A stretch of DNA of 62,337 bases from a virus. Taxonomy: Duplodnaviria; Caudoviricetes. Shown piece by piece: positions 8,676 through 22,275 of the stretch; within the stretch, counting starts at the first letter, position 1; each line of letters starts with the position of its first letter. Both the position numbers and the translations under genes were made by a program. The notes below the pieces were generated by a model. It saw nothing but the letters and a program-made list of their open reading frames with translations, ran no database searches and was not told the DNA's origin. The stretch covers positions 1-62,337 of the IMG/VR virus record IMGVR_UViG_3300027985_000790. One strand, given 5' to 3'.

Positions 8676-8913
8676 AGTACCTTTCTCCTGGTGTGTTTTT
8701 ATACAGTTTGATAACCGCTTATAAAGATCTCTTCATTTAGGTTATTCTGAAAGAATAGGTGACTTCGTGTCAACTATAAAGATAGGTGGAAAATGCCTAG
8801 ATTTAGGCGGTTCTAGCGGTGCAAGGTATAAGGATTGGGATAGAATTTTAGCAGCGCCAAAAACGGTATAACCGGGGGCAGGGATAGTGCTAATCCTGGA
8901 GCTCGCCTGGCGC

Positions 8914-9360
8914 TGATAATGATTATCATTTAGGGGTCCCCGAAACGCGACTCATTATCATCCGCACCCGCAACTGCGAATGATTATCAGTACCCGATGC
9001 AACCGCGAATGATTATCACCTCGCCCTTGACTGCGAATCATTATCAGTCGCCCATGCAAACGAGACGCATTCGCAGACGCATCACCTAATGCGAATCATT
9101 ATCAGTCAACCTCGGAACGCGAATCATTATCAGGTGCAATAGGTGACGCGACTCATTATCAGTCAACCTCGGAACGCGAACCGTTCTCATTCGCATTGTG
9201 GCAAAAGGACAACGCGACTAGGTCTCATATGCACGGAAGGTGATATGCGAACAGGTCTCATTTGCGGGTGATAATCGGTCGCATATGAGGTGCAGGTGAT
9301 ATGCGAATGAGTATCAATTGGGTTGTTATGATGGGACAGTGCAAATGCGACTCATAATCA
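8914..9360. repeat. Phased array of about 15 Fur-box-like 15-mers (consensus YGCGAATSATTATCA; first copy TGATAATGATTATCA)
   Basis: Copies start at 8914, 8946, 8975, 9004, 9032, 9061, 9090, 9118, 9147, 9175, 9213, 9246, 9269, 9302 and 9346. Confidence 0.85.
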
Positions 9361-9559
9361 TTTGCAGTTGGAAATCGGGCGCGGGCAGGACGGCAGCAGT
9401 TGTTTTGCGTCTCGTTCGCATTACACATGCATGTGAACGCAATCGCTTTAACCTATTGCATCACGAATAGCGTATCCTGTTTTCCTATCCGTGTATAAAT
9501 AAAAACCGCATCTGCAACCACAAACATTCTGTCGTAACCCATTGTTCTGTAACCTAAAA

Positions 9560-9572
9560 CAACTCCTTGATT
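9560..9572 (-). promoter_or_regulatory. IHF consensus site
   Basis: CAACTCCTTGATT is the reverse complement of WATCAAnnnnTTR; near-matches at about 9535 and 9630. Confidence 0.4.
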
Positions 9573-9655
9573 ATCACCGTTTATGACCATGTGTGGTTTA
9601 TTCTTATATGCCTAAACCAATGAAAACACTAACAAATTCATGATTATATAAATAA

Positions 9656-9719
9656 AAACCACAAAAACCACACCACGTCTTCGTATGCGCACGTGCGCGT
9701 ACACGCGTGCGCGGATGTG
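9656..9719 (+). repeat. 64-bp element, copy 1 (alternating purine/pyrimidine core)
   Basis: 58/64 identical to 43635-43698. Confidence 0.9.
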
Positions 9720-9745
9720 TTTTCTGTGCCTATGCGCCGCCCAAC

Positions 9746-9772
9746 AAAAAGCGCGACCGAAGCCGCGCCTTT
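9746..9772 (-). terminator. Intrinsic terminator
   Basis: GGCGCGG-CTTCGG-TCGCGCT hairpin followed by TTTT on the minus strand. Confidence 0.8.
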
Positions 9773-9788
9773 CTCGAACGTTTAAACA

Positions 9789-9947
9789 TCAGAAACGATA
9801 CACGACCATCTCGTAAATGAACCAACGCCCAACGTCGTCCCGATACACGATGCGCGTCTCACCGTCGATGAACGTCACCTCGCCTTCGTCTACGTCATAA
9901 ACCACGACCACTTCTGTACCGTGCTGACTGACCGCTGTAAATTCCAT
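9789..9947 (-). CDS. Small hypothetical protein (52 aa, MEFTAVSQHG...)
   Basis: Read by hand; follows 9951..10133 and precedes the terminator. Confidence 0.6.
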   Translation of the reverse strand: MEFTAVSQHGTEVVVVYDVDEGEVTFIDGETRIVYRDDVGRWFIYEMVVYRF

Positions 9948-9950
9948 GAT

Positions 9951-10133
9951 TCATTCCCCCATCCAAATGGCGACGCTGTCTTCCGCGTCGCACGTCATAC
10001 ATGCGATAATTTCGGCTGCCTGTTCAATGATAGCCGCGTCCGTTGCGTCATCGCCCAACAATTCACGTGCCTCTGCGATGCAGGCAACGACGAAGGCCCG
10101 GTAGGTTTCATGTCTTTCTGTAATTGCGTCCAT
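9951..10133 (-). CDS. Hypothetical protein
   Basis: GAGGA RBS; conserved promoter upstream. Confidence 0.7.
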   Translation of the reverse strand: MDAITERHETYRAFVVACIAEARELLGDDATDAAIIEQAAEIIACMTCDAEDSVAIWMGE

Positions 10134-10165
10134 GATGCAATCCTCAATTCGTTTATCACATTATT

Positions 10166-10196
10166 ATTATGACGCATAAATCCTTTATTTGCGTAC
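10166..10196 (-). promoter_or_regulatory. Promoter-like motif GTACGCAAA-N15-TCATAAT
   Basis: Three 31-bp copies, each oriented towards a small gene. Confidence 0.6.
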
Positions 10197-10411
10197 CGAT
10201 TGCAAAAATTCTTTTCATTCTTTCTGCGACTGATTCTCATTCGCGCACCTCACAGATCACGTCACATTCGCATCCTATGCACCCATCAATGCACTTGCAT
10301 CAACCAGACATGCGACGCAGCAGCGTGCGATTCACGAGGTTTTACGATACCCCCGGGGAGTATTTCACGAATCATGAAAACACGACTGATACTCATTCGC
10401 ATCAAACACGC

Positions 10412-10445
10412 AAAATAAACGCGATTCAGTTGAATCGCGTCGTTT
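10412..10445 (-). terminator. Intrinsic terminator
   Basis: ACGCGATTC/GAATCGCGT stem followed by TTATTTT on the minus strand. Confidence 0.6.
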
Positions 10446-10459
10446 GTTCAATGCGCCTC

Positions 10460-10561
10460 CTACAGCGCTGCTGAGATTGCACTGAGGGCCATGACCAGCG
10501 CGTCAACGAAAGCCCAACCGATGACCGTCACAACGACGACGACAACCAGAACCTTAGACAT
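10460..10561 (-). CDS. Small membrane protein (33 aa, MSKVLVVVVVV...)
   Basis: Read by hand; GGAGG RBS; single TM segment. Confidence 0.55.
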   Translation of the reverse strand: MSKVLVVVVVVTVIGWAFVDALVMALSAISAAL

Positions 10562-10769
10562 GATTCACCTCCCGAGCGTTGAGGTAAGCAGACAGCGTGC
10601 GTTCAAGGTAAGACAGCTTGATGTCTACGCTTTCGTCATCACCACAAACGCTGCTGAAGAAGTCGTGACCATCATCCAAGTTGCAATGATGCTCACCTTC
10701 TACATATGCATAAGTGAAGGCGAGGCCATTGGCTGCTGCGAGTCTAGTTACACGAGCAAGAACGTCCAT
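10554..10769 (-). CDS. Hypothetical protein
   Basis: GGAGGT RBS; promoter at 10807-10837. Confidence 0.7.
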   Translation of the reverse strand: MDVLARVTRLAAANGLAFTYAYVEGEHHCNLDDGHDFFSSVCGDDESVDIKLSYLERTLSAYLNAREVNHV

Positions 10770-10806
10770 GACACACCTCCCGATAACAAATTAAACCTTC
10801 ATTATC

Positions 10807-10899
10807 ATTATGACGCATAGCTCACCTTTTTGCGTACTCGAAAATAAAAAATTTATTTTGCATTGTGAGTACGCAAAACCTTTAAAGGTGAATCATAAT
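10807..10899. promoter_or_regulatory. Divergent pair of GTACGCAAA-N15-TCATAAT promoters
   Basis: 10807-10837 (minus) and 10869-10899 (plus) with an A/T tract between them. Confidence 0.6.
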
Positions 10900-10929
10900 A
10901 AACATGTAACAACAAACGAGGATAACATC

Positions 10930-11139
10930 ATGAACGCTGCTGAATTCCGTGAAACTGTTTTTGAACTCGGTCAGGTCATCACGACGACCAAAGGTGTACA
11001 GCTGACCATTATCGGCTTTGTGCGTGATATGTTGATCTGCGACTGCTCAGGCGAACTGTTCACCGTGCACCGCAATGGCTATATCAGATACTGCGAGTTG
11101 GCGCTTTCTGCTGAGCAGGCCGTCGGCCGAGCTTTCTAA
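10930..11139 (+). CDS. Hypothetical protein
   Basis: GAGGA RBS before MNAAEF; own promoter and terminator. Confidence 0.7.
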   Translation: MNAAEFRETVFELGQVITTTKGVQLTIIGFVRDMLICDCSGELFTVHRNGYIRYCELALSAEQAVGRAF

Positions 11140-11150
11140 CCTGCTGCACT

Positions 11151-11176
11151 AGCCGAGCCATTGCGCTCGGCTTTTT
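11151..11176 (+). terminator. Intrinsic terminator
   Basis: AGCCGAGC/GCTCGGCT stem followed by a T run. Confidence 0.75.
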
Positions 11177-11278
11177 GCGACTGATTCTCATTCGCGCACC
11201 TTATTGCGTCTAAATCTCATTTACGACCAAGTCGCATTCGTATATGCACCTCCCTGCATGTACGTCTGCGACCGTTTT

Positions 11279-11584
11279 TCAAAAACCCCGAGCGACATTT
11301 TGCTCAAGCCGCTCAATGGCCCACTCAACGAACTGCATCCTCAGCGGGTTGGCCCAGAAGCCACCTTCCTGGTGTGCATCACGGCAGTAGCCAGCACAGT
11401 GGCCATTGATGAACCAGGAGGGATTGAACACCACACCTCGCTCCTTGCACCACTGCTCGGCCAGTACAAGCATCTCCCACTCGGCCCAGAGGCCTGCCGT
11501 AAACTCCACATTGAAGCAGATTGCTTCATCCGGGAACAGCGGCCCCTCGTTCTTTATCAGCCGTAGCGCCTGTAGCAAACTCAT
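11279..11584 (-). CDS. Paralog family 1 member (subtype A)
   Basis: LLxALxxIKxxGP...IC.N...WxNPxR motif; ATGA overlap. Confidence 0.8.
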   Translation of the reverse strand: MSLLQALRLIKNEGPLFPDEAICFNVEFTAGLWAEWEMLVLAEQWCKERGVVFNPSWFINGHCAGYCRDAHQEGGFWANPLRMQFVEWAIERLEQNVARGF

Positions 11585-11892
11585 GCAAGCCATGCGAGCA
11601 CCCTCCGGAAGAAGGTTTGTTCACGCAGCAGGCACTTGGCTACATGACGAGCAAGGTCCCGCCGAAGGTCGCCATACTCACCTTCATACAAGGTGAAGTG
11701 TTCCCAGTAAGCGTCTGCCCCACCAGGCACTGGGAAGGTTTTGCTTCCTGAGAAGAACTCCCACGACTGAGAATGCTCCTTCACTTCTTTCTTAGCTCCC
11801 GCATTGCAGCAGATGCCCACAATATCGGAAAACCCGGGAATGTAGCGCTCCCGCCCGTAGGCAATGAGAAGCAGTTTCGTTACCTTGTTCAT
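11581..11892 (-). CDS. Paralog family 1 member (subtype B)
   Basis: GIC...WEFFSG...FPVP...LYEGEYG.LRRDLA. Confidence 0.8.
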   Translation of the reverse strand: MNKVTKLLLIAYGRERYIPGFSDIVGICCNAGAKKEVKEHSQSWEFFSGSKTFPVPGGADAYWEHFTLYEGEYGDLRRDLARHVAKCLLREQTFFRRVLAWLA

Positions 11893-12224
11893 TCGACCCC
11901 CAAGTCATCTTCGAGCCACGCGATAGCCCAGTGTAGGAAGGACAGCCTTACCGGGTTGCTCCAGAAGGTGCCGCTTGCTTTCTCGTCCTCCCACTCCTTC
12001 CACCCGCCAACCCAGAAGGCAGGGCAGTATTCACGTCCTGTCCTCGTGGCCCACTCCTTAGACAGGTAACGAAGAGCATCCGAAACGGCACGCGCCTCCC
12101 ACGGGTCGTTAACGTGGTTGATGGCACCTAATGCAACGTTGCCACACAGGGCTTGCTTCTTGTTCTCAGGGCCGTGCCGCTTGATACGCAGCAGCACGTC
12201 CAGGAGCTTCCGCTTGCTACTCAT
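11889..12224 (-). CDS. Paralog family 1 member (subtype A)
   Basis: IKRHGP..ALCGN...FWSNPVRLSFLHWAI. Confidence 0.8.
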   Translation of the reverse strand: MSSKRKLLDVLLRIKRHGPENKKQALCGNVALGAINHVNDPWEARAVSDALRYLSKEWATRTGREYCPAFWVGGWKEWEDEKASGTFWSNPVRLSFLHWAIAWLEDDLGVE

Positions 12225-12414
12225 CGTCGTCCTCCTCGTTGCTCGGCAGGCCGCCGTTTTCCGCGGCGTCGACCAGTTGGTATGCCATGTCCACGAGACG
12301 CATCATGGCTTCCTGTTCTTCGGGTGACAAGCTGCAGCCGTTGTCAATGGCCTGCAGGCAGTCCTGGAAGTCGCGTGCCGTATTCTGAAAGCGGCAGTAG
12401 CTCATGTTACTCAT
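12217..12414 (-). CDS. Hypothetical protein (MSNMSYCRFQNT...)
   Basis: GAGG RBS; tight packing with neighbours. Confidence 0.7.
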   Translation of the reverse strand: MSNMSYCRFQNTARDFQDCLQAIDNGCSLSPEEQEAMMRLVDMAYQLVDAAENGGLPSNEEDDDE

Positions 12415-12748
12415 AGCAGTATTCCTCAAGGTAGTCAATAGCAAAGTGCAGGAAGTCGAGGCGGACAGGATTGCTCCAGAAGGTTTCGTCTTCCAGCTCC
12501 TTGTCCCAGGCTTCTTCACCTTCGAGCCAGTAGTAGTGAGTGAACTTCTGCCCGCGGTCGTAGCACCAGACCTCACCAATGCTGCTGAGGAGGTTCTCAA
12601 GGATCTGGCTCTCAAACAGTTCCATCTCCTCCCCACGAAGCACGCGGTTGGCGTGCATCATGTTGGAGCACAAAGCATGGCATGAACGAGTAGGCCCGTG
12701 GCGCTTTATCTCGTTCAGCGCGTTAAGCAGCAGTTGATGTTTAAACAT
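12407..12748 (-). CDS. Paralog family 1 member (subtype A)
   Basis: Start MFKHQ; IKRHGP..ALCSN...FWSNPVRLDFLHFAI. Confidence 0.8.
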   Translation of the reverse strand: MFKHQLLLNALNEIKRHGPTRSCHALCSNMMHANRVLRGEEMELFESQILENLLSSIGEVWCYDRGQKFTHYYWLEGEEAWDKELEDETFWSNPVRLDFLHFAIDYLEEYCYE

Positions 12749-12758
12749 GATCTTTCTC

Positions 12759-12989
12759 CTATTCTGCCAGCTCAGGCCAGCCTTTGGTGGTCGGATCAAT
12801 GGGCAAGCCAAGCTGCTCCACGAGTTCATCGTAGTCGGGAGAAACTTCCTCCCAGGTATCGGCATCAGCGAACAGTTCACGGCCACTGGCATCCTTACCA
12901 CAGTAGCGGACTAGGTCCCCGTACTGCGGTTGTCCATCAAAGTCCAGTATCATGCAGCAGTACATGCCACCTTTTACGAGCTTATCCAT
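12759..12989 (-). CDS. Hypothetical protein
   Basis: ORF with RBS; operon packing. Confidence 0.65.
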   Translation of the reverse strand: MDKLVKGGMYCCMILDFDGQPQYGDLVRYCGKDASGRELFADADTWEEVSPDYDELVEQLGLPIDPTTKGWPELAE

Positions 12990-13179
12990 GGTTCACGTCC
13001 TCACCAAAACGTGCTTGGACGGAGAAGAACAGCTCCTCTGCCACTTGGGCTCTCAGACCATCTGTAACATCTTCAAGATCAGATTCGGGTGCTTCCTTCA
13101 TTATCTCGTGAGCACGAAGCATTATCTCATCTGTCAGCATGCTGACGTACTGGCTTACTATCTCGTTGTAGCGGCTCAT
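12982..13179 (-). CDS. Hypothetical acidic protein
   Basis: AGGAGGT RBS; sigma70-like promoter upstream. Confidence 0.7.
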   Translation of the reverse strand: MSRYNEIVSQYVSMLTDEIMLRAHEIMKEAPESDLEDVTDGLRAQVAEELFFSVQARFGEDVNHG

Positions 13180-13218
13180 AGCACACCTCCTACTGGTGCA
13201 ATTAATTGGTACAATTTA

Positions 13219-13246
13219 ATTATAATACCTGCCGCCAGCCCTGCAA
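13219..13246 (-). promoter_or_regulatory. Sigma70-like early promoter
   Basis: TTGCAG-N16-TATAAT; leader TAAATTGTACCAA shared with the promoter at 16173-16200. Confidence 0.6.
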
Positions 13247-13258
13247 CTTTATTTGCGT

Positions 13259-13621
13259 TTAAACGGGAAAATCCAGCTCCTCGGTCAAGGCGTCGATGGC
13301 GAAGTGAAGGAAGTCGAGACGCAGCGGGTTGCTCCAGAAGCGCCTAAAGCACAGCTCTACCTTCCAGGTTGTGTGCCCGTTGATGAAGTAGCCTCGATTG
13401 TACCAAAGCAGGTGCTGCCCTGTGCGCTGCTTGTACCATGCAGCACCCAGCTCCTGGAGCACAGCGCCAACCTCCCTTGACGTAGCCGAGGAACAGAACA
13501 AGCCGCCACCTGCTACCTGAGCAGTATTGGAGCACAGCGCCCACTCCTTGTCGAATGGCCCGTGCTGCTTAATGTGAACCAAACCCTTCAGCACGGCCAG
13601 CTTAACCATGTACTTGTCCAT
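13259..13621 (-). CDS. Paralog family 1 member (subtype A)
   Basis: Start MDKY; IKQHGP..ALCSN...FWSNPLRLDFLHFAI. Confidence 0.8.
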   Translation of the reverse strand: MDKYMVKLAVLKGLVHIKQHGPFDKEWALCSNTAQVAGGGLFCSSATSREVGAVLQELGAAWYKQRTGQHLLWYNRGYFINGHTTWKVELCFRRFWSNPLRLDFLHFAIDALTEELDFPV

Positions 13622-13634
13622 CTCGCTCTCCAGT

Positions 13635-13649
13635 TGATAATGATTCTCA
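13635..13649. promoter_or_regulatory. Fur-box-like site
   Basis: TGATAATGATTCTCA, one mismatch to TGATAATnATTATCA, just upstream of the RBS. Confidence 0.55.
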
Positions 13650-13789
13650 TTTGCGCACCGCACAGTTCGCAGCACGCTGACGTTCTAGAACGCCGTCCCC
13701 ACGCTTGTATGCCTTACCCCTGCCCGTCCTTAGCGGGCGTTCTACGCGGTTTGGCTATACCCCACCCCAGTATACAGATACCCCAGTAT

Positions 13790-14038
13790 CTACGACACTC
13801 GGAAGGGGTAGGGGTTCCTGACTTCGCTGACATCAGCCGGCTCAAAAGGCGAACCCCAATCGTCTATCGTCTGAGTGTTGTGCGGGATGGCCAGGGCGTG
13901 AACACAAACCGAACGGGTGAGCAGAATAGGCTTGCCACAGCAAGGTGTAGCCACCCGTGCGGCGTTGCCATAGGTCTCTACGTTCCTCCAAGTATAGGCA
14001 GGCAGCTCAACTTCCTTCTCGCAGTATGGGCACTTCAT
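13790..14038 (-). CDS. Hypothetical Zn-ribbon protein
   Basis: CPYC...PCC motif. Confidence 0.65.
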   Translation of the reverse strand: MKCPYCEKEVELPAYTWRNVETYGNAARVATPCCGKPILLTRSVCVHALAIPHNTQTIDDWGSPFEPADVSEVRNPYPFRVS

Positions 14039-14475
14039 TGCTTCTTCTCCTCTATCTGGATGCCGCGCTCGATGGACCAGATGGCCTCCTTGAGGTCTTG
14101 GATGAGGTCCTTGTTGTTGTCACCACGGTTGCCCGGCTGCAGCAGCTTCTTGAGCGCGTGCTGAACACCTGGATTCCGGATGTCCCAAGCATCAAGCAGG
14201 TCGTAGACGTCTATCCACACACCAGGTGCTACTTGCCGGTGATACTTGCTCCGCTTCGTGTCGGCTTCGCCTTCCATGAAGAGGTCTAGTTCGTGCTCCC
14301 CGGACGCGCTCCACTTACCATCGACATACCAGCCGAAGGTGCCCTCTTTGCCGGCTACAGTTCCACGTAGTATGGCACTTTTACCAACTTCAGTAGACAG
14401 GATTTTGATGCCTCTCCCGTCTCGCGTCACAACAGGGGCTCCTTTCAAGGCTGCCGCAAGGTCAAAAGGTTTCAT
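14035..14475 (-). CDS. Paralog family 2 (KPFDL..TRDGR domain) with a DUF3310-like C-terminus
   Basis: MKPFDLAAAL.G..VVTRDGR; HALKKLL.PG.RG..KD..QDLKEAIWSI. Confidence 0.75.
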   Translation of the reverse strand: MKPFDLAAALKGAPVVTRDGRGIKILSTEVGKSAILRGTVAGKEGTFGWYVDGKWSASGEHELDLFMEGEADTKRSKYHRQVAPGVWIDVYDLLDAWDIRNPGVQHALKKLLQPGNRGDNNKDLIQDLKEAIWSIERGIQIEEKKQ

Positions 14476-14852
14476 CGTCCTATCCCCGCGTGCTTGGCGT
14501 GCTCGAGCAGCGACTCCAGCTGCTCAACCTGTGCCTGGTGAATGATGCTCAGAATCCGGGCAAAGCCAATCTTGCCTTGCATCGGGTGAGCTTTGGCAGC
14601 ATCCGTTATCGCTTTACCCAAAGCCAGCGTCGCTTCGTACAGCGCATCTTCACTGCTACCTACCATGAAGAGCTGCAATTCTGAGCCGCCAGTGCTCCCA
14701 CCTGCCGGGCTCCACTGACGCCCCAAAATGCTCCCTTCCACGTATCCCACTATCATGCCATCTTCTTTAGCAGCTAGGTTGAAGACACGGCGGCCGTCTC
14801 GTGTGACAACGTGTTCCCCAGCCAAGGCTGCCGCAAGGTCGAAGGGCTTCAT
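14472..14852 (-). CDS. Paralog family 2 member
   Basis: MKPFDLAAALAGEHVVTRDGR. Confidence 0.75.
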   Translation of the reverse strand: MKPFDLAAALAGEHVVTRDGRRVFNLAAKEDGMIVGYVEGSILGRQWSPAGGSTGGSELQLFMVGSSEDALYEATLALGKAITDAAKAHPMQGKIGFARILSIIHQAQVEQLESLLEHAKHAGIGR

Positions 14853-15196
14853 ACCGCACCCCACGCATTCTGGCGCACCTTGTCACGCACCACGTCCACG
14901 ATCTCGGACGCCAGGCTGTCAGCACCTCGGCAGTCGGCAGCGGCCGTAGCCAGGATCTGCTTGACCAAGCTTTCCACAGCATCGTTCAGCGTGTCCGCCA
15001 TAAAAAGGTTGTACCCTATGGACACTGAGTCGACACCGCCGAAGCTTCCATCCAGGTGCCACCCACTGCGGTGATTATTCTCGCCGATATAGCCGACGAG
15101 CAGCGAGCCTTTTTGCTGCAGGCAGGTCACCTTCCGGCCATCCCGGGTAGTGACAGCGGCCCCAGCCAGGGCCGCCTCGAGGTCAAAAGGTTTCAT
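14849..15196 (-). CDS. Paralog family 2 member
   Basis: MKPFDLEAALAGAAVTTRDGR. Confidence 0.75.
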   Translation of the reverse strand: MKPFDLEAALAGAAVTTRDGRKVTCLQQKGSLLVGYIGENNHRSGWHLDGSFGGVDSVSIGYNLFMADTLNDAVESLVKQILATAAADCRGADSLASEIVDVVRDKVRQNAWGAV

Positions 15197-15384
15197 CACA
15201 TCTCCTCCCGCTTGATCTTGAGAACGTCGGCGTAGATGCACTCTGCCATCACGGCTTGGGATTGAGTTGCATCTGTCTGCATCCGCAGCACCATCTGGTC
15301 ACGGTGCTGCTCGCAGATCATCACCTGGAAGAAGCTGCCACCGAAGGTGAGGTTGTAGACAACCAGAATCACTTGCAGTTCCAT
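15196..15384 (-). CDS. Hypothetical protein
   Basis: GGGGAG RBS; operon packing. Confidence 0.6.
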   Translation of the reverse strand: MELQVILVVYNLTFGGSFFQVMICEQHRDQMVLRMQTDATQSQAVMAECIYADVLKIKREEM

Positions 15385-15386
15385 GG

Positions 15387-16133
15387 CTACTCCCCCTTGG
15401 TCTTGTGCGGCACAGGAGCGTCCAGGCCTTCCGGCAGGACCAGGTAATACACCGGATAGGTGTACTCGTCGCTGTAGCCATTAGCTATGGCGTAGTCTCG
15501 CAGGACCAGGTGCTGCTCGATGGTGAAGTCGTCCGGGTGCTGGCTACCTACTTCCTCAATCAGGGGGCAGCCTTGGATAGCATCCAGGAAGTCTTGGGCG
15601 GTATCGAACGAGCAGGCAACCCACAGTTCGTAGCCGCACTTCCACTCAGTGCGCACACCGTAGCCCTTCTGGCGCATATCCCAGTAGCAGGCGGAGCGGA
15701 TGGATGCATCGTCCCAGGGCTGGCCGTCCTTCTTGATGCAGACCCGGCGGAGGTCGTCAATGGTTGCACCTGCAAACAGGAAGTCGATGATCTGTGCTTG
15801 CTTGCTGTTGGCACGAGCGGGGTAAGCGCGTTCATCAGCGGGGCAAGAGATGGAGCCTTTGCGGCGACCAGCGGTCTTTTCAGCGGTAGCCGGCTTGGCG
15901 GCCTTCTTAGCCTTACGCATAAAGACGACGGCGTGGTTGGCAACGTGTACTTGGTCGGCTTCGCTCAGCTCACCTTCCACCATGTCCAGGTAGACGACTA
16001 CTTGGAAGCGGTCATCGCCGTCCACCTTTACAGCTTCAATTTCGAAGTGGTCGAAAGCAGTAGCGGCGGACAAGCGGTCGGTATCACGTTCAGCGGCACG
16101 CTTGGCGGACTTGGTGTTGTTGTAAGTGGTCAT
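15387..16133 (-). CDS. Hypothetical early protein, possibly DNA-binding
   Basis: 248 aa; Lys/Ala linker followed by an SKQAQIIDFL..GATIDDL winged-helix-like segment; own promoter. Confidence 0.7.
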   Translation of the reverse strand: MTTYNNTKSAKRAAERDTDRLSAATAFDHFEIEAVKVDGDDRFQVVVYLDMVEGELSEADQVHVANHAVVFMRKAKKAAKPATAEKTAGRRKGSISCPADERAYPARANSKQAQIIDFLFAGATIDDLRRVCIKKDGQPWDDASIRSACYWDMRQKGYGVRTEWKCGYELWVACSFDTAQDFLDAIQGCPLIEEVGSQHPDDFTIEQHLVLRDYAIANGYSDEYTYPVYYLVLPEGLDAPVPHKTKGE

Positions 16134-16172
16134 GATACGTCTCCTATTGACGTTGTTTGTTGGTACAATTTA

Positions 16173-16200
16173 ATTATGAATGATAACTGCCTTATTACAA
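16173..16200 (-). promoter_or_regulatory. Sigma70-like early promoter
   Basis: TTGTAA-N16-CATAAT with the shared leader. Confidence 0.55.
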
Positions 16201-16218
16201 CTTAGATTGCGAAAAATT

Positions 16219-16410
16219 TTAACCTCGCCTTTCGAGGACGTCCAGCAACTCCCATTGCTCCTCCTCCAGGCCGTTTATCTCCTGAGTAAGGTCGTAGAAT
16301 TCCTTGGGCAGGTCGTCAACGTCAAACTTGCGGTTGAACTCAACCTGGCGAGCATACAAGCCGGGCAGGGCTTTAACAATGTCACGAAGACGAGTAGCAT
16401 AGTTGTTCAC
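16219..16410 (-). CDS. Hypothetical protein
   Basis: GTG start after AGGAGGT; TTGCAA-N16-AATAAT upstream. Confidence 0.6.
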   Translation of the reverse strand: MNNYATRLRDIVKALPGLYARQVEFNRKFDVDDLPKEFYDLTQEINGLEEEQWELLDVLERRG

Positions 16411-16569
16411 GGTGCACCTCCTACTGGCGCGGTTCGTTCTACACATTTATTATTGACGCTGCTAGCCGCCTTGCAACCTTATTTTGTTGATCTAGGTCAA
16501 AATCCTAATCATTTATAAACCACCTGCTTTGATGCGTTATATTGATAGTGAAGACAAGCGCTGCTCATT

Positions 16570-16624
16570 TGATAACCGCTTGCATTTGCAGATGATTCTT
16601 ATTCTCATTTGAGAATGATTCTCA
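16570..16624. promoter_or_regulatory. Cluster of Fur-box-like sites
   Basis: TGATTCTTATTCTCA (16593) and the perfect 7-1-7 palindrome TGAGAATGATTCTCA (16610). Confidence 0.6.
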
Positions 16625-16640
16625 TTTGAGAATACGTCTA

Positions 16641-16697
16641 ATTTTCAAAATCCCCGAGCGACATTTCCGTGATTTTCAAAATCCCCGAGCGACATTT
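16641..16697 (+). repeat. 26-bp direct repeat ATTTTCAAAATCCCCGAGCGACATTT, two copies
   Basis: Exact copies at 16641 and 16672; a near copy at 11276-11300. Confidence 0.9.
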
Positions 16698-17090
16698 TTA
16701 CAGATCGTAAACCAGACGCTTTATTTCTCGCACCAGATGTGCTTGGCCATAGGTCAGTATTTCGCTGTCGTCGTACTTGCCGCCTAATTTAATTCGCTTA
16801 CCTGCCGCCGCCCAGCCGTCTATTACGGCATGTAAGGCTTCGTGGTAAACCATTTCCTCGTCGTACTCGTCCAGAAGAAACAACACTATTGGGTGGTCAA
16901 ATTCCTCTACCATATCGCAGCCAGTCATCGCACCGCCGTCTGCCAGATGCTTAGAAATGGTGGCACCTGCTGCTTCCAGCTTGGCTAAGTTGCTGCAGGT
17001 GCTTCTGCAGGCCTCCAGAAACATGGGCAGCTCGCTCTCAACCACTACAGGTATCTTAAGGTCCAGCGGTTGCATAGTGATGGTAATCAT
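16698..17090 (-). CDS. Hypothetical protein with an HEXXH motif
   Basis: VYHEALH...E. Confidence 0.65.
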   Translation of the reverse strand: MITITMQPLDLKIPVVVESELPMFLEACRSTCSNLAKLEAAGATISKHLADGGAMTGCDMVEEFDHPIVLFLLDEYDEEMVYHEALHAVIDGWAAAGKRIKLGGKYDDSEILTYGQAHLVREIKRLVYDL

Positions 17091-17359
17091 ACTCGTACCC
17101 CCGCGAATGAGTTTACCCACACCTTACCCATCCCCTCAAGCTGTTCTGGACACTGGCAGAACCGCTGAGAGTTGAACTTCTTACCGTTTAAACGGATGTT
17201 AAATTCATGCCCCAAAGGAACTCGTGAGAACGTGGTCAGGGTAACAAGGAACTCAGGCTTGTGCGAGTGGAATCTACCTTCGAGCCAAAGCAGCTCCACG
17301 TCGTCGGGAAGGTCTACCTTAAGGGTGACGCCCGCGAATTTTACCTTATGCGTCCGCAT
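17087..17359 (-). CDS. Hypothetical protein
   Basis: Operon packing. Confidence 0.6.
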   Translation of the reverse strand: MRTHKVKFAGVTLKVDLPDDVELLWLEGRFHSHKPEFLVTLTTFSRVPLGHEFNIRLNGKKFNSQRFCQCPEQLEGMGKVWVNSFAGVRV

Positions 17360-17687
17360 AGTCCAACTCCTCTGTCAGCTTGTCGATGGCGAAGTGCAGC
17401 AGATCCAGCCGCATGGGGTTCGACCACAACGTCCTGCTGTCCATGGCAGTTTCAAACTCATCTTCACCTTCCACAGGATACCACTCATCGCCCGAGTGGT
17501 GGGGCCAGTCGGAAAACAAAACTCCCAGGTATGAGTAGCAGAGCTTAGCAGTTTCAGAACCTTCAGGTAAGCTGGCTTTGGCGTGGTCGCAGATACCATA
17601 GTAGACAGTATTATCTTTACCGTCTTGGTTCCCGTGCTTCTTTATCCGGATGAGAGCTTCCAGGATTTCGTGCTTAATGCTCAGCAT
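17346..17687 (-). CDS. Paralog family 1 member (A/B bridge)
   Basis: GIC...WPHHSGDEWYPV...WSNPMRLDLLHFAI. Confidence 0.8.
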   Translation of the reverse strand: MLSIKHEILEALIRIKKHGNQDGKDNTVYYGICDHAKASLPEGSETAKLCYSYLGVLFSDWPHHSGDEWYPVEGEDEFETAMDSRTLWSNPMRLDLLHFAIDKLTEELDYADA

Positions 17688-17973
17688 AGTCCAGCTCCTC
17701 GGTCAAGGTGTCAATCATGTAGTGGAGCAGATGCAGCCGGTCGCAGCAGCTCCAAGGTTCCAGCTCGTCGCCCTCCACGGGGAAGTAGTCATCACCCGTG
17801 AAGTGCTCCCAGCTGCGGTACAAGTCAACCAGCACCCGCTGGAAGGCATTAAGGCCCTGTCTACGGATGTGTGGTGGCATCAAGTACAGTACATTGTGGC
17901 AGATGCCATCTGCTCTAAGCAGCGGGCCTTCCCGCTTGATGCGGAGCAGGGCTTCTAGCACCAGGCGCTTCAC
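17674..17973 (-). CDS. Paralog family 1 member (A/B bridge)
   Basis: IKREGP..GICHN...WEHFTGDDYFPV...RLHLLHYMIDTLTEEL. Confidence 0.8.
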   Translation of the reverse strand: MKRLVLEALLRIKREGPLLRADGICHNVLYLMPPHIRRQGLNAFQRVLVDLYRSWEHFTGDDYFPVEGDELEPWSCCDRLHLLHYMIDTLTEELDYAEH

Positions 17974-18455
17974 TTTACCACCCGCATAGGCGCAACGTAG
18001 CGGAAGACATCCACTTGCTCGCCAAAATCCACCACGTAAGGGTAGCGGGACTTCATCTCCGTGCCAACATATACGCCTACCTTACCTGTGTTGCCGTCCA
18101 TCCAGCACTGAGAGTCGTCCAGCGGCAACGCAATGACCTTCTCACCCCACCACATCTCCCGCATGGGCAGCACGATTAGTGCATCCTGCTTTTCAAGGTC
18201 TACATGGATCCGCTTGCTGTTGGCTGCCATCACGGCGGGCCCTTCTTTGACTACGCGGTACAGCTCGTGGTCAATAAGAAGTATGTCGCCCAGAGCCAGC
18301 TCCATGCTGTGCAGCGGTATGTAGTAGACGCACTCCCGCTTATAGTCAAGAGTGCCGCCGTACTTCTCAGCCTGCTCCTGCATCTGTGCTTGGACGCCTT
18401 GAGCACGTCCCAGCATGTAAAGAGCGGTGAGTATCTGGCTGGTAATCAGTTGCAT
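17970..18455 (-). CDS. Hypothetical protein
   Basis: GAGGAG RBS. Confidence 0.65.
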   Translation of the reverse strand: MQLITSQILTALYMLGRAQGVQAQMQEQAEKYGGTLDYKRECVYYIPLHSMELALGDILLIDHELYRVVKEGPAVMAANSKRIHVDLEKQDALIVLPMREMWWGEKVIALPLDDSQCWMDGNTGKVGVYVGTEMKSRYPYVVDFGEQVDVFRYVAPMRVVK

Positions 18456-18458
18456 GAT

Positions 18459-18713
18459 CTACTCCTCGTATTCCGCGGCAGCAGCAATCTGCGCCATGAA
18501 GTCAACCTTGGCGAACTCCAAGGCACCTACTGCCAGGATAGGCTGGTTGAAGTTGGCCGCACAAGACGAGCAGGTCCTATCCGTGCCCAGAACCACGACC
18601 ACCATGTTAGCAATCAAGCCATCCGCTTCTTGCTGAGCAAGCTGCTCAATCAGTTCCTTAACACCTTCGCCTGATTCCTGCTTGCCGAATTCTACTTGCC
18701 GAATACCCATCAT
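18459..18713 (-). CDS. Hypothetical protein
   Basis: AGGAG RBS; ATGA overlap. Confidence 0.65.
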   Translation of the reverse strand: MMGIRQVEFGKQESGEGVKELIEQLAQQEADGLIANMVVVVLGTDRTCSSCAANFNQPILAVGALEFAKVDFMAQIAAAAEYEE

Positions 18714-18928
18714 TCTGCTCCTGTCCACTCGTCCAATTCCTTCACCAGCATCTTAGCCAGTGCTCTCTTGGACAACACTTGAGAGTGCAGCGCGTATCCA
18801 GTCAGCTGCCGCAGCAGCGACGAGCCAAACGGGGCAGCGCTGTCAGCTGCTTCAATTATCCCTACGCCAGAACGGCCTTGTGCTATCTCTTGCACAGCGT
18901 CCCGCACAGCTCGGATTCGCTCATCCAT
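18710..18928 (-). CDS. Hypothetical protein
   Basis: GGAGG RBS. Confidence 0.6.
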   Translation of the reverse strand: MDERIRAVRDAVQEIAQGRSGVGIIEAADSAAPFGSSLLRQLTGYALHSQVLSKRALAKMLVKELDEWTGAE

Positions 18929-19235
18929 CGCTCATCCTCCATTCTTCCATTCGCCGTGCCATGTGTCCTGCCAGCTCTCGGCGCTTCTCACCATACTCTC
19001 CCACGTAGAGGTTAGGCGTGGCCATGTACCAAGCTCCTGGATGTCCGCCGTCCGGAGACGGAATGGGAAACTGGTTGTCACCTGAGAAGTGCTCCCAGGT
19101 CTCCCACAAGTACGGACCGGTCCTTACACCGAATCCACTGAGGTAGTAACACAATCCAAAACCTGGGTGAGCAGGCGTCACCCCAGCAGCCACGTCCTTA
19201 AGGAAGGTGATGGCCCCTATTATGTTGCGAGACAT
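18921..19235 (-). CDS. Paralog family 1 member (subtype B)
   Basis: GLC...WEHFSGD..FPIP...LYVGEYGEKRRELA. Confidence 0.8.
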   Translation of the reverse strand: MSRNIIGAITFLKDVAAGVTPAHPGFGLCYYLSGFGVRTGPYLWETWEHFSGDNQFPIPSPDGGHPGAWYMATPNLYVGEYGEKRRELAGHMARRMEEWRMSDG

Positions 19236-19858
19236 TACCATTCCTCCCGATGCTTGAGCAAGTGGAAAGCCAGGTCCCGGCGCAGCATGCCATACTTGCC
19301 TTCGTAGAAAGTCTTGCTCTGCCACGCGGCGTTCCAGCGTTCACCCGGACTTCCGCCTTCCGGATCGGGTATCGGGTAGGCCCAATTCCCCGTGAAGAAT
19401 TCCCAGCTTCTAGCGACATCAAACAGATCCACGTACTTACCGCACAGTTCCAGCGCGTAGCAGAGGGCGTTCCGAGGCGTCCTGATGCCCAGAGCAATGT
19501 CCAGCAGCAGCTCCAGCTGGTCCCGCTTTACGCCGGAGAAGCCTTCCAGTACGAAGGAATATTGCTCCTTGAGCTCTTCCTGGCGCAGCTTCTTGTAGAG
19601 GAAGTAGGCCAGGTCTCGGCGAAGCATACCGTACTTGCCTTCGTAGAGGTTGTTCAAGACCTGGTAGATAATGTTAGGTCCGCCGCCCTCCGGGTCCGGC
19701 ACGGGATAGTGAGTACTACCGGAATAGAACTCCCACTCACGAAACCAGCGTCTAAGCGACAGTTTCTTAATGCCACTTCTATTGACGTGGAAGCAGAGGC
19801 CTGCATTAGCCCGCTGCGGCACGAAACCCCTGGCGATACGATAGAGGATGTTAGTCAT
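19235..19858 (-). CDS. Paralog family 1 member with two tandem subtype-B domains
   Basis: WEF.[ST]G...YP[VI]PDPEGG and YEGKYGMLRRDLA each occur twice. Confidence 0.85.
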   Translation of the reverse strand: MTNILYRIARGFVPQRANAGLCFHVNRSGIKKLSLRRWFREWEFYSGSTHYPVPDPEGGGPNIIYQVLNNLYEGKYGMLRRDLAYFLYKKLRQEELKEQYSFVLEGFSGVKRDQLELLLDIALGIRTPRNALCYALELCGKYVDLFDVARSWEFFTGNWAYPIPDPEGGSPGERWNAAWQSKTFYEGKYGMLRRDLAFHLLKHREEW

Positions 19859-20072
19859 TCATCAGCTCCTGGATCTGGTTGAAGAGGGCGGAAACCTGCT
19901 CGTCGCTGAGGTCAGGATCTTGGAGCTTCTTACGCAGCTCGGCGACCTCGTGAGCGTTGGCTATCTTCTCCGCTACGTTGGTGCCTTGCCCCATGTAGTG
20001 CTCGCAAGTGGAAAGGTGCATTGCCATACCGAAAGAGGCGATAGCAGTGCAGGTCAGCAGAATCTTAAGCAC
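19851..20072 (-). CDS. Hypothetical membrane-anchored or exported protein
   Basis: N-terminal hydrophobic segment; GGAG RBS. Confidence 0.6.
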   Translation of the reverse strand: MLKILLTCTAIASFGMAMHLSTCEHYMGQGTNVAEKIANAHEVAELRKKLQDPDLSDEQVSALFNQIQELMND

Positions 20073-20132
20073 GATTTATCTCCGTTATTGGTGATAACTT
20101 AATTATACACGCCACAAGCGAGCACGACGAAC

Positions 20133-20741
20133 TTACTTGGGTGTCGGCAGCTTGAGCAGGCGGTTCAGGTCTGCCACGTTGAGGGCGGGCAGCTGCTTCT
20201 TGACTTCTTCCTTGGGCAGCAGCTCGGCAGCTTCCGGCCATTCTTTGAGCAGGCGCTCAACCGTGGTGAAGGAAGAGGTGCTGGCCATTACCGTATCGTA
20301 GACGTCCCGCTGCTGAGCCTTGAGCTCCTGAATCTTGTTGATACTTGCTTCCCAGATGCTGAACAAAGGAGAGCCCACATCCACCGGAAGATAGTGGTCG
20401 CAGAACAAGCGGACATCATCGTCCGACGAAGGAACACGGCGGACATCGTCCCACCCAATATCGCCGGTAGTGAGGTGGACGTAATGGTAGTTACCTTGGA
20501 TCTTCAGCTGGACGTAGCGGTTCGGCTGGGGGAACGAAACCATCATACTACCAGGGAGCTTCTTGTTAAGAGCACTCATGGTTTTGTGGATGCCCATGAG
20601 TTCGTCGTAGTTGGCTACTTTGTAAGTGCTTACAACGCACTCAGCCAGCTGCTTCTTGATGGCTACAATGGTGTCTCCCAGCTTGAGGTTCCGTACCGCC
20701 TGGGCGGCCATGTGCTCACGGGTTCTTTTCAGCAGTTTCAT
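20133..20741 (-). CDS. Nmad5-like (nucleotide-modification-associated domain 5) protein
   Basis: MKL.K..R start and C-terminal TTVERLLKEWPEAAELLP signature. Confidence 0.65.
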   Translation of the reverse strand: MKLLKRTREHMAAQAVRNLKLGDTIVAIKKQLAECVVSTYKVANYDELMGIHKTMSALNKKLPGSMMVSFPQPNRYVQLKIQGNYHYVHLTTGDIGWDDVRRVPSSDDDVRLFCDHYLPVDVGSPLFSIWEASINKIQELKAQQRDVYDTVMASTSSFTTVERLLKEWPEAAELLPKEEVKKQLPALNVADLNRLLKLPTPK

Positions 20742-21169
20742 TCTGCGTCTCCTAAGATTTTGGAGTTTCCAGGTATGCGGTACTCGAATACAAAGCACTC
20801 GAGATCGTCCGCAGTGTAGAAGCGTTTGCCTTCGTTGCCATTCTGCGGGTCATAGAGAATTGGGTTTCCCACCCGGCGGTAGTCAAACAGAACGTAGTGC
20901 AGGTACCGCTCCAGGTTCAGAGACGGAACAGCGCCCAGGTAGACATTGCCCCATTCTGCATACTGGTCCTTGACGCCCAAGCAGAAGAAGTCCTTGCCTT
21001 CTTCAAAGCCCGAGACTTCCAGGTAATCGTGCACTTCCACCTTGTGGGCGAAGTAAAGGTTGTGGAACTCGTCTATCACCTCCTGAACCGGACGGCCCAG
21101 GAGCATGGCCAGACTGGTGCTCACACAGGTATCCTGAGTGGGCTGCTGCTGCTGAATGAAGGTTCTCAT
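20738..21169 (-). CDS. Papain/C39-like peptidase (putative)
   Basis: Q.....C...SLAM, HYVLFD and YDP. Confidence 0.55.
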   Translation of the reverse strand: MRTFIQQQQPTQDTCVSTSLAMLLGRPVQEVIDEFHNLYFAHKVEVHDYLEVSGFEEGKDFFCLGVKDQYAEWGNVYLGAVPSLNLERYLHYVLFDYRRVGNPILYDPQNGNEGKRFYTADDLECFVFEYRIPGNSKILGDAE

Positions 21170-21393
21170 TCGATGTTCTCCAGGTTTTGCAGGGAGTCTT
21201 CCAGCGAGCAGATGGCTTCATCCAGGTAGGAGACGTTCTGCTCCATGGAGCAGCCACGCTCTGCCGCTTGCAAGCCTTCCGGCAAATTGTCGTAGGCTTC
21301 CTGCTCGTCGTCCATGGCAGTACTGAGAAGTTCCTGAGCCTGCCCAATAAGGTTCCGGGCTTCTTCTATCACCTTCCGGCGTTGCTGGTTCAT
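21166..21393 (-). CDS. Hypothetical coiled-coil protein
   Basis: MNQQRRK...EQEAYDNLPEGLQ; AGGAG RBS. Confidence 0.75.
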   Translation of the reverse strand: MNQQRRKVIEEARNLIGQAQELLSTAMDDEQEAYDNLPEGLQAAERGCSMEQNVSYLDEAICSLEDSLQNLENIE

Positions 21394-21431
21394 TTGCGTT
21401 CTCCTGTGTTTAAACGCTACCACAAAGAGAG

Positions 21432-21531
21432 CCGCCCTGCTCGGAGTCGAACCGAGGACCTTCCCTACCAGTCTGCCATTGCTCGAGATAGCAAGTCGGT
21501 CTGGCTGATCTCACCACTGATCTACAGGGCG
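21432..21531 (-). ncRNA. tRNA-like RNA with an enlarged anticodon arm
   Basis: Acceptor CGCCCTG/CAGGGCG; D arm GATC-AGTGGTGA-GATC; T arm CTCGG-TTCGACT-CCGAG; 29 nt in place of the 7-nt anticodon loop. Confidence 0.75.
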
Positions 21532-21599
21532 GTTGTCTTTGTGTCCTGGCCTTTTTCCTCGCCAGGGCGGAGGGTTGAGGTTGCTTTCTAGATCATCTA

Positions 21600-21755
21600 T
21601 TAGGAATTAAGGTTTACCCAGGGCCCATAACCCTGTGCCGTGACGGCGGGCGAACCAGTCCAGATTGTAACGAAGCTGGGTCTGAGGGCTTCGTTACGGT
21701 ACGTGCTGTCCACTCCCGTTATGAGGATGAGCAGCCAGAAAAGTAGTAGAATCAC
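21600..21755 (-). CDS. Possible 51-aa membrane peptide (MILLLFWLLILITG...)
   Basis: Read by hand; AGGAGG upstream of a GTG start. Confidence 0.35.
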   Translation of the reverse strand: MILLLFWLLILITGVDSTYRNEALRPSFVTIWTGSPAVTAQGYGPWVNLNS

Positions 21756-21822
21756 ATACTGCCTCCTATGTCCTGTTGACTGTTTAATAAATCACTTATC
21801 GTGCTATTTAAATATAACACAG

Positions 21823-22275
21823 TTATAAGCTGCTGCAACGACACTCAAGGAGAAGTCCTTTAACGTGCGCTACCAGATCTTTGGCAGATGCAAAGGACAG
21901 ACACTTCAGTAAGGACTCCTTGCTCATCCCATTGTAGAGGAAGTCAAAGTTGGGACCTACCCACAGGAACCAACGGCCATCACGGACGCGGCACCAGAGG
22001 AAGGTTTGCCCACCTGCCAGCTGGCGCTTCTCAAGCCAGCGAGCTTGGTATACCAGGCGCTCGTCGTCCTTGGGTCCAAAGCGCACTATTGAAGACGCTC
22101 GGACAGGAAGATCCTTGATGAACTTACCTTCCATCCAGAACTCGACGCCTGACCAGCAGGCATTGAGGTCCGGTATACCTGAGGTGAGCTTGTCTTCAAT
22201 CCGCTGCATATCAATGCCCGGCATCAGAAGCTTGAGGTTCTTCCGCATTGTTGCGGTTGCGCTGTTCTCAGCCAT
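21823..22275 (-). CDS. PD-(D/E)XK nuclease / Holliday junction resolvase-like
   Basis: E..., RIE...GIPDL...WMEGK...Q..W motif. Confidence 0.75.
   Translation of the reverse strand: MAENSATATMRKNLKLLMPGIDMQRIEDKLTSGIPDLNACWSGVEFWMEGKFIKDLPVRASSIVRFGPKDDERLVYQARWLEKRQLAGGQTFLWCRVRDGRWFLWVGPNFDFLYNGMSKESLLKCLSFASAKDLVAHVKGLLLECRCSSL

Follow-up and report, generated by a model that had tools for sequence, protein, structure and literature searches.

What does a phage gain from carrying nine divergent copies of one small gene, and how far can the role of the encoded proteins be read from their sequences and surroundings? The question is raised by the virus record IMGVR_UViG_3300027985_000790 (Duplodnaviria; Caudoviricetes) of IMG/VR, a single contig of 62,337 base pairs (bp) that we analysed in its entirety and call the window. 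A preliminary description, made from the sequence alone, had proposed that nine genes between positions 11279 and 19858 form one expanded family of about 100 residues per domain, and that this family is a diversified repertoire of binders or inhibitors, for example anti-defence proteins or small-molecule sponges. We will show that the nine-gene expansion is real and that it is not exceptional for its family. The protein family is undescribed, being catalogued solely as PHROGs clusters of unknown function and matching no solved fold in our searches. As to its role, we tentatively put forward a host-interaction or anti-defence repertoire, and weigh this reading below against the alternatives.

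The nine open reading frames (ORFs) lie where the preliminary description had placed them, co-oriented on the minus strand, and they belong to one family. This follows from the alignment of the ten domains (A1), from pairwise phmmer comparisons of each domain against the 812 stop-to-stop frames of at least 40 amino acids (aa) in the six frames of the genome, and from a profile of 88 sequences, mostly from outside the window (A2). All ten domains are found by A2 at E ≤ 1e-14, and the remaining frames of the genome give nothing at E ≤ 1; there is no tenth gene, and the earlier count of ten domains in nine genes was exact. Together the genes occupy 3,249 nucleotides (nt), or 5.2% of the 62,337 bp, which bears out the estimate of about 3 kb. 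Alignment A1 contains invariant Leu, Cys, Trp, Gly and Arg columns, with Cys, Trp and Arg kept in ten of ten domains, and the identity between paralogs is 44% or less.

The subtypes A and B, and the mixture of both patterns in two genes, are legible directly in the translations, as had been noted before. Among the A-type genes, 11279 (11279..11593, 104 aa) ends in FWANPLRMQFVEWAI. Its phmmer matches are 12407, 11889 and 13259 (E 2.6e-10 to 5.8e-9), followed by 17674 (0.0016) and 17346 (0.011), and the A2 profile finds it at 1.8e-17. Gene 11889 (11889..12224, 111 aa) matches 12407 at 1.4e-19 and 13259 at 1.9e-15, and is recognised by phrog_6323 at 2.7e-4 and by A2 at 2.9e-19. Gene 12407 (12407..12748, 113 aa) matches 11889 at 1.1e-19; its domain occupies residues 55-164 of the stop-to-stop frame (A2 profile E 1.2e-16). 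Gene 13259 (13259..13621, 120 aa) has its phmmer matches in 12407 (1.5e-16) and 17346 (1.2e-13), with an A2 value of 9.5e-15. These four genes and 17346 mostly match one another at E 1e-9 to 1e-19, the exception being the pair 11279 and 17346, for which E is only 0.01-0.02.

The B-type genes 11581 and 18921 and both halves of 19235 likewise match one another, at E 1e-9 to 1e-32. Gene 11581 (11581..11892, 103 aa) carries the motifs WEFFSGSKTFPVP and YEGEYGDLRRDLA and matches 19235 at 3.8e-22 and 18921 at 1.5e-9, phrog_8153 at 2.6e-9 and A2 at 4.5e-18. Gene 18921 (18921..19235, 104 aa) matches 19235 at 2.1e-32, phrog_8153 at 2e-11 and A2 at 3.4e-20; a truncated, near-identical metagenome copy of it exists (P0005). 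Gene 19235 (19235..19858, 207 aa) encodes the two-domain protein, with domains at about residues 3-96 and 111-206 that A2 detects separately (E 3.4e-22 and 5.3e-18) and that phrog_8153 covers in two stretches (1.1e-20).

The two genes of mixed type lie between these groups. Gene 17346 (17346..17687, 113 aa) combines WPHHSGDEWYPVEG with LWSNPMRLDLLHFAI and is near the consensus of the wider family. It matches 17674 at 2.6e-14 and the A-type genes at 1e-11 to 1e-13, as well as phrog_6323 (1.5e-7), phrog_8153 (1.9e-6) and A2 (3.7e-23). Gene 17674 (17674..17973, 99 aa, with a GTG start) is a sequence bridge between A and B: its phmmer matches run from 17346 (7e-15) and 11889 (1.4e-6) to 19235 (1.3e-5), 18921 (8.4e-4) and 11581 (0.018), the reciprocal hits fall at 7e-4 to 0.035, and the A-type genes other than 17346 lie at 1e-6 to 4e-3. 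The A2 profile finds this gene at 3.1e-20.

Concerning the starts, the frames of 12407, 13259 and 18921 are drawn out by the ORF tool to GTG codons further upstream (GTG 12901 and GTG 13675 for the first two). The likely starts are instead the ATGs at 12748, 13621 and 19235, which align with the N-terminus of the family. An AGGAGA precedes the ATG of 12407, and the ATG of 18921 (19233-19235) has one base in common with the stop of 19235. All nine starts are preceded by purine-rich GGAG/GAGG-like stretches, as read by eye. Four junctions overlap by 1-14 nt, at 11581-11593 (13 nt), 11889-11892 (4 nt), 17674-17687 (14 nt) and 19235 (1 nt), and these overlaps agree with translational coupling.

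We now consider the family as a whole, for which the preliminary description had called for a profile and a survey of copy number. An exhaustive profile search of 1.84 billion representative sequences gave 2,739 proteins at a threshold of E ≤ 1e-3, of which 156 remain at E ≤ 1e-10. We examined 155 proteins, namely the best profile hits and ten from another search (eight of them the window's own). One candidate, P0045 (676 aa, 11 apparent stretches and a DUF5570 hit), was dropped as the translation of a low-complexity repeat. The 155 proteins contain 223 domains, 87 having one and 68 having two, which means that about 44% are tandem fusions; a search for longer fused forms gave none at E ≤ 1e-3, which is weak evidence.

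Over the 223 domains the Cys is conserved in 98%, the Trp in 97%, the Arg in 99% and a loop Pro in 96%; two Gly positions reach 90-91%, and the mean column identity is only 21%. The scaffold begins with an N-terminal helix, and helix 2 opens with G-[IL]-C; then come the Trp, the ordered loop S-G-x3-[YF]-P-[VI] and the final helix, which bears the invariant Arg. The segments between these elements differ in both length and sequence. In the four core A-type genes (11279, 11889, 12407 and 13259) the SG...YPV loop motif has been lost and the Cys, Trp and Arg are retained. Outside sequences contain both endings, W-x-N-P-x-R and W-x-G-x-Y-G-x-x-R, and this makes A and B older lineages within the family and not inventions of this phage.

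It is important to point out that this family is large, unnamed and so far known almost only from phages. None of the nine proteins comes near a Pfam gathering score (the best match has E 0.078 and scores 13.6 bits where the cut-off is 27), and among 88 members no Pfam family is matched by more than two at E ≤ 1. NCBIfam gave no match for 14 proteins, and PADLOC gave for the 88 members a single weak match, to Csx21 in one of them (E 0.005). The family is represented in PHROGs, where the 88 members match phrog_8153 (71), phrog_13228 (68), phrog_28830 (59), phrog_12785 (30) and phrog_6323 (18), all labelled "unknown function". These clusters are family members by direct sequence match; PHROGs splits the family and gives it neither name nor function. 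At E ≤ 0.01 there is a PHROGs match for seven window genes; the other two, 11279 and 12407, are joined to the family by phmmer. Our literature searches found no paper citing these PHROGs identifiers, none on Xp10 48L, and no study of the Xp10, Paz, KF-1 or phiA008 members that are discussed below.

Other searches added little. The ESM Atlas held no informative neighbour (best scores 0.77, viral hypothetical proteins). A back-translated YPVPDPEG pattern picked out 68 bacterial or archaeal loci, none of which had the family by hidden Markov model, and these are chance matches (a weak test of absence from cellular genomes). With the same pattern in IMG/VR, a member was present at one of seven loci, as a single copy on a 60-kb contig. 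A pattern search based on a further alignment (A4) gave nothing confirmed in viral contigs.

Two of the proteins were modelled with confidence by AlphaFold2. The model of gene 11279, with the ten paralogs as alignment, has a mean predicted local distance difference test (pLDDT) score of 86.8 and a predicted template modelling (pTM) score of 0.81, and shows five helices (2-16, 25-33, 35-52, 70-75 and 83-101); the stretch 61-80 is poorly modelled. The invariant cysteine, Cys26, sits in the first turn of helix 2. The two-domain protein of gene 19235, modelled from an alignment of 60 sequences of two-domain relatives, has a pLDDT of 86.5 and a pTM of 0.63, with the W..SG...YPVP loop region at a pLDDT of about 98 and a long helix connecting the halves. 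The nine genes encode the same domain ten times; it is about 100 residues long, and helical with one long ordered loop.

Against solved structures, Foldseek returned nothing at E ≤ 1e-3 for either model. The best VIA-align Z scores, 4.9 and 4.2, are low on that tool's own yardstick, even for helical proteins, and a profile search of PDB sequences gave at best E 0.032, to an unrelated protein. The absence of a structural match leaves room for a fold that may be shared with solved anti-defence proteins or sponges. Compared with predicted viral structures, there are many matches at TM 0.6-0.7 (Foldseek E 0.01-0.8) to uncharacterised proteins. They include proteins of the Acinetobacter T4-like phages ZZ1, Acj9, Acj61 and 133, of phiKDA1, Edwardsiella IW-1, PspYZU05 (five), Vibrio phage Kuja (three) and RaK2, as well as Xp10 48L and a protein of Paz.

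The conserved residues and the model bear on a first alternative for the function. The domain could be a small thiol-dependent enzyme or a ligand-binding sponge, in which the Cys, Arg and Trp together with the SG...YPV loop would form one pocket for a small molecule, such as a nucleotide-derived immune signal, or for a host side chain, and in which the paralogs would differ in substrate or partner. The near-invariance of the three residues despite a column identity of 21% speaks for such a site, as does the modelled position of Cys26 at the start of helix 25-33. A thiol at a helix start often has a lowered pKa, as in thiol enzymes. The very high confidence of the conserved loop points the same way, and the two-domain fusions (68 of the 155 proteins) would suit sponges that form their pocket by oligomerisation. 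On the other hand, no sequence or fold similarity to a solved enzyme or sponge was found in the searches, and the single invariant Cys has no conserved His, Asp or Glu as partner. About 100 residues is also small for an enzyme, and 20-30 diverged copies would be unusual for an enzyme with one substrate. We consider a predicted pocket of this kind unlikely on balance, and still the foremost of the alternatives.

A further question is whether the nine genes arose by duplication within this phage lineage. To this end we used a FastTree phylogeny of 212 domain instances over 110 columns, which has very long branches and low resolution; gene 17346 is absent from it and 11581 does not figure among the window domains that were retained. 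In this tree an exclusive clade with a support of 0.98 unites the four core A-type genes; part of the expansion took place in this phage lineage. The nearest neighbour of 17674 is an outside protein (P0029), and 18921 and 19235 fall in a five-leaf clade with an outside two-domain protein (support 0.40). From these sequence relationships we read the set as at least three older lineages to which duplication within the phage lineage would have been added.

Near-identical DNA to the window is present in metagenome runs, and no RNA run containing this phage was among those listed. Contigs from three runs of one other study were compared with the window at a likeness of at least 80%. They cover 29-30 of the 30 bins of the interval 9000-22000, in pieces of about 85-95% identity with many joints. 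One joint connects 11915 to 12436, at matching C-terminal positions of the paralogs 11889 and 12407. This joint would suggest a loss of 11889 or an unequal crossover, but its sides span just 30-48 nt on the most conserved motif, which makes it an unreliable sign of either.

Among cultured phages, the closest relatives by capsid protein are the Dinoroseobacter phages R5C and R26L and the Pseudanabaena phage Pan1 (genus Nanhaivirus), whose major head proteins are 69-70% identical to that of the window. Whole-record profile searches gave no matches in any of these three, and none in T4, phiKMV or phiKZ. In this phage's own lineage the family is accessory, and on the level of a phage genus it is dispensable. 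At the level of DNA, a megablast search with the 9-kb family region found no match in 50,697 phage records, and a tblastn search with the A-type gene 12407 also found none among phage records.

The family is nevertheless widespread in phages of Gram-negative bacteria. With a typical member (P0051), tblastn matched 124 phage records, of which 60 are from Pseudomonas phages, 21 from Acinetobacter and 19 from Aeromonas phages, the remainder infecting Edwardsiella, Shewanella, Rhizobium/Agrobacterium, Xylella, Xanthomonas and Stenotrophomonas. Among 60 listed matches, nearly all are annotated "hypothetical protein", one is a DNA helicase II, and some lie in unannotated records. The genomes belong to many phage types, from 40 to 230 kb, and thus the family extends beyond giant phages. 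Where whole records have matches, the copy number ranges from 1 to 31: 31 in PspYZU05, 31 in Thanatos-1, 21 in Thanatos-2, five in Aeromonas phage phiA008, three in Edwardsiella phage KF-1, and one each in Xylella phage Paz and Xanthomonas phage Xp10. The family expands repeatedly and independently in different phages.

The positions of these members are informative. Counted from the left end of the Paz genome, Paz_03 is the third gene, and it lies upstream of the primase; the three KF-1 matches lie within or mostly within gp07, gp08 and gp12, small genes between the terminase and the polymerase/primase. Xp10 48L belongs to a leftward gene block, three genes from p7 (45L, annotated as an inhibitor of transcription initiation and antiterminator). 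In PspYZU05, Thanatos-1 and Thanatos-2, the arrays are directly upstream of motA and asiA and co-oriented with them. These T4-like arrays begin a few genes after rIIA or the lysis-inhibitor genes (in PspYZU05, just after dam) and extend to motA-asiA; in Thanatos-1 and PspYZU05 almost all genes of this stretch carry the domain. We take all these positions, of the Paz, KF-1 and Xp10 members and of the T4-like arrays, to be early regions, from general knowledge of the phage types.

In Thanatos-1, 28 consecutive frames carry the domain over about 17 kb (108-126 kb of the record), and the PspYZU05 locus has 18 such frames. The proteins of both arrays have the domain in their C-terminal half, after an unassigned N-terminal extension of 50-130 residues that may be a decayed second copy. 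The early position of the T4-like arrays is supported by Nolan et al. (2006, PMC1524935), according to whom almost 90% of T4-like genomes' novel ORFs cluster among early and middle genes, many of them behind predicted early promoters. Term searches in the available text of both Thanatos papers turned up no discussion of the array.

This context raises a second alternative, namely that the proteins serve the phage's own programme, as accessory factors of transcription or replication or as DNA- or RNA-binding regulators. The T4-like arrays adjoin the genes of the transcription factors MotA and AsiA, and the Xp10 member is near the RNA polymerase inhibitor p7. In the window, the genes come just after the replication and nucleotide-modification module, next to a gene for an Nmad5 protein, and operator-like palindromes (described below) lie within the family block. 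A core function would be expected in close relatives, yet no matches occur in R5C, R26L or Pan1, nor in T4, phiKMV or phiKZ, and a copy number anywhere from 1 to 31 would fit such a function poorly. Nor was there a match to a helix-turn-helix or other nucleic-acid-binding Pfam family, and the isoelectric points run from acidic to basic, at 4.7 to 9.7 for the ten window domains (four of which are net positive at pH 7) and with a median of 5.9 for the 155 proteins, 27% of which exceed 8. We thus give this explanation little credence.

The array proteins are made during infection in one relative, Thanatos-1. Supplemental Table 3 of PMC7530303 reports mass spectrometry in which 25 of the 28 array proteins, all except TH1_149, 156 and 157, appear in lysate precipitated with polyethylene glycol; for these counts the profile frames were mapped to genes by us, and the columns of the PDF table may have been misread. 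The same table places seven of the 28 in the purified-phage preparation, which brings in a third alternative, that the proteins are associated with the virion or injected along with the DNA. The purified-phage column also lists DNA polymerase, ribonucleotide reductase and ligase, so that this fraction carries cytoplasmic proteins and is unclean. In the annotated regions examined, no member lies inside a structural gene block, and no signal or processing motif was seen in the family proteins. A role in the virion is accordingly very improbable.

We return to the proposal of a diversified host-interaction or anti-defence repertoire on a conserved scaffold, which is our best reading and which we hold tentatively. 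Under this proposal, the family proteins would be cytoplasmic accessory proteins that stay outside the virion and are made with the early or host-takeover genes. The variable segments would let each copy engage a different host factor, most likely a part of the host's varied defences against phages or another host protein that varies between strains. A shared site or core needed by all copies would be made up of the invariant Cys, Trp and Arg and the loop, and the expansion would supply the phage with a repertoire of specificities. The structural half of what the preliminary description had claimed holds, in that there is one divergent family with an invariant Cys, a fixed scaffold, variable middles and an expansion in the lineage. 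The functional half is consistent with the context, considering the positions of the members, the detection of the proteins, the independent expansions and the absence from the nearest cultured relatives. The wide range of charge also agrees with different partners.

Several points weigh against this repertoire reading. No homology in the databases searched assigns a function to the family. The early status of the Paz, KF-1 and Xp10 members derives from gene position and general knowledge, and promoter-like sites in the window are at chance level (11 found versus 9.6 expected in shuffled sequence); a terminator scan of the window was at chance level as well. The seven array proteins in the purified-phage preparation of Thanatos-1 and the possible misreading of the table columns have to be counted here too, and with a pTM of only 0.63 for the two-domain model a fixed pseudo-dimer is unsupported. 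The near-invariant Cys, Trp and Arg at 21% column identity, finally, suggest a common catalytic or ligand-binding site. This conservation favours the thiol-enzyme or sponge explanation over a pure protein-binding scaffold, for a purely variable binder leaves it unexplained.

Another option considered is a modular counter-defence arsenal, in which one cysteine-based site of all copies, built from the Cys at a helix start, the Arg, the Trp and the ordered loop, would capture or modify a shared chemical handle (for instance a nucleotide used in immune signalling, or a reactive group of host defence proteins), and in which the variable inserts would direct the copies to different host systems. We think it improbable that this is the actual arrangement. 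If it were true, the arrays of 9 to 31 copies would record the defences met by a phage lineage, and the domain would represent a structurally new, phage-specific superfamily that comprises at least 2,700 sequence clusters and lacks a solved relative.

We now turn our attention to the surroundings of the genes. Minus-strand ORFs span about 96% of the window, and the PHROGs annotation indicates a siphovirus. On the virion side there are genes for the large terminase, portal, a MuF-like head protein, scaffold, major head protein, tail proteins and tape measure, and an Rz-like spanin is also encoded. The replication and nucleotide genes comprise helicases, a primase, a family-A DNA polymerase, clamp, clamp loader, dCMP deaminase and ribonucleotide reductase. 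A full 7-deazaguanine set is found at 27-35 kb, with QueC-, QueD- and QueE-like genes, GTP cyclohydrolase and a queuine tRNA-ribosyltransferase-like gene. No tRNA genes were found in the window. The family genes lie, in three groups, in a block of small genes at 11-23 kb between the replication/modification module and the packaging genes.

Directly upstream of the two-domain gene 19235, at 20133-20798 on the minus strand, is the gene for the Nmad5 protein (nucleotide modification associated domain 5, PF18757, E 5.6e-18), which is distant from the main 7-deazaguanine block. Within the packaging/head module, the large subunit of ribonucleotide reductase (2741-4540, minus strand) is encoded by a gene flanked by those for the portal and for MuF-like head morphogenesis, and a PhoH-like gene at 26-883 comes after it.

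The block also contains a second set of paralogs, consisting of three tandem genes on the minus strand (14035-14475, 14472-14852 and 14849-15196). They have in common an N-terminal domain of about 65 residues that starts with MKPFDLAAAL.G..V.TRDGR and has 22 invariant columns, and their C-terminal halves differ. The first gene matches PHROGs of unknown function (phrog_2452 and others), and none of the three matches Pfam.

Next to the family block, positions 8700-11280 form a stretch of about 2.5 kb with a lower G+C content (0.49-0.51) and only very short minus-strand ORFs of 35-81 aa. In related metagenome contigs position 10351 is joined to 11300, with further rearrangements within 8700-11280, and a 31-nt repeat, 97% identical, occurs at 10220-10250 and 11171-11201. 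A 15-nt motif, TGCGAATSATTMTCA, has 21 copies at up to two mismatches, compared with 0.34 expected by chance; they are found at 8914-9366, 10225, 10387, 11176, 13635-13649, 16610-16624 and 57714. Copies that are perfect palindromes, or nearly so, occur 14 nt upstream of gene 13259 (13635-13649) and in the intergenic gap at 16.6 kb, and contigs of a related phage differ in copy number inside the array. The set looks like an array of operators, iterons or packaging sites.

It is also instructive to compare the family with known systems. The arrays of Thanatos-1 and -2 (TH1_134, TH1_137-165) and PspYZU05 (PspYZU05_188-206) have the same domain (profile E down to 5e-23) in co-oriented, head-to-tail, strongly diverged copies. 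They differ from the window in being three times larger, in encoding proteins of 135-220 aa, and in their location in the T4-type plastic region by motA/asiA, whereas the window genes are mostly single domains of about 100 aa, arranged in three groups in a siphovirus with a 7-deazaguanine set. Xp10 48L, Paz_03, KF-1 gp07, gp08 and gp12, and the five phiA008 matches likewise have this domain (E 1e-14 to 2e-25) and are found with other small genes upstream of replication genes; unlike the window genes, they are low-copy, and all are annotated "hypothetical". The window family is the same kind of phenomenon as the lineage-specific multigene families of large phages and large DNA viruses, namely numerous diverged copies in tandem of a small protein in which a few residues are invariant and which is probably expressed early.

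Small anti-defence proteins and signal sponges of phages, such as Tad1, Tad2, Acb2, Ocr and Arn, resemble the family in general profile only, being small, non-structural and variable between related phages. The likeness is thus an analogy of role and not membership, as no sequence or fold similarity of the family to any solved structure was found. DNA mimics of the Ocr/ArdA/Arn type are strongly acidic throughout, whereas the domains of this family are not.

In this genome the family takes up 5% of the sequence, and in some T4-like phages roughly a tenth; it has no name, Pfam entry or structure. It is directly testable, since three of its residues are near-invariant, the model is confident, and there are phage-host pairs that are tractable, such as Thanatos and Shewanella oneidensis MR-1. 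Once learned, its function would annotate thousands of "hypothetical" phage genes, and it could reveal a new mechanism of host takeover or counter-defence that is relevant to phage host range.

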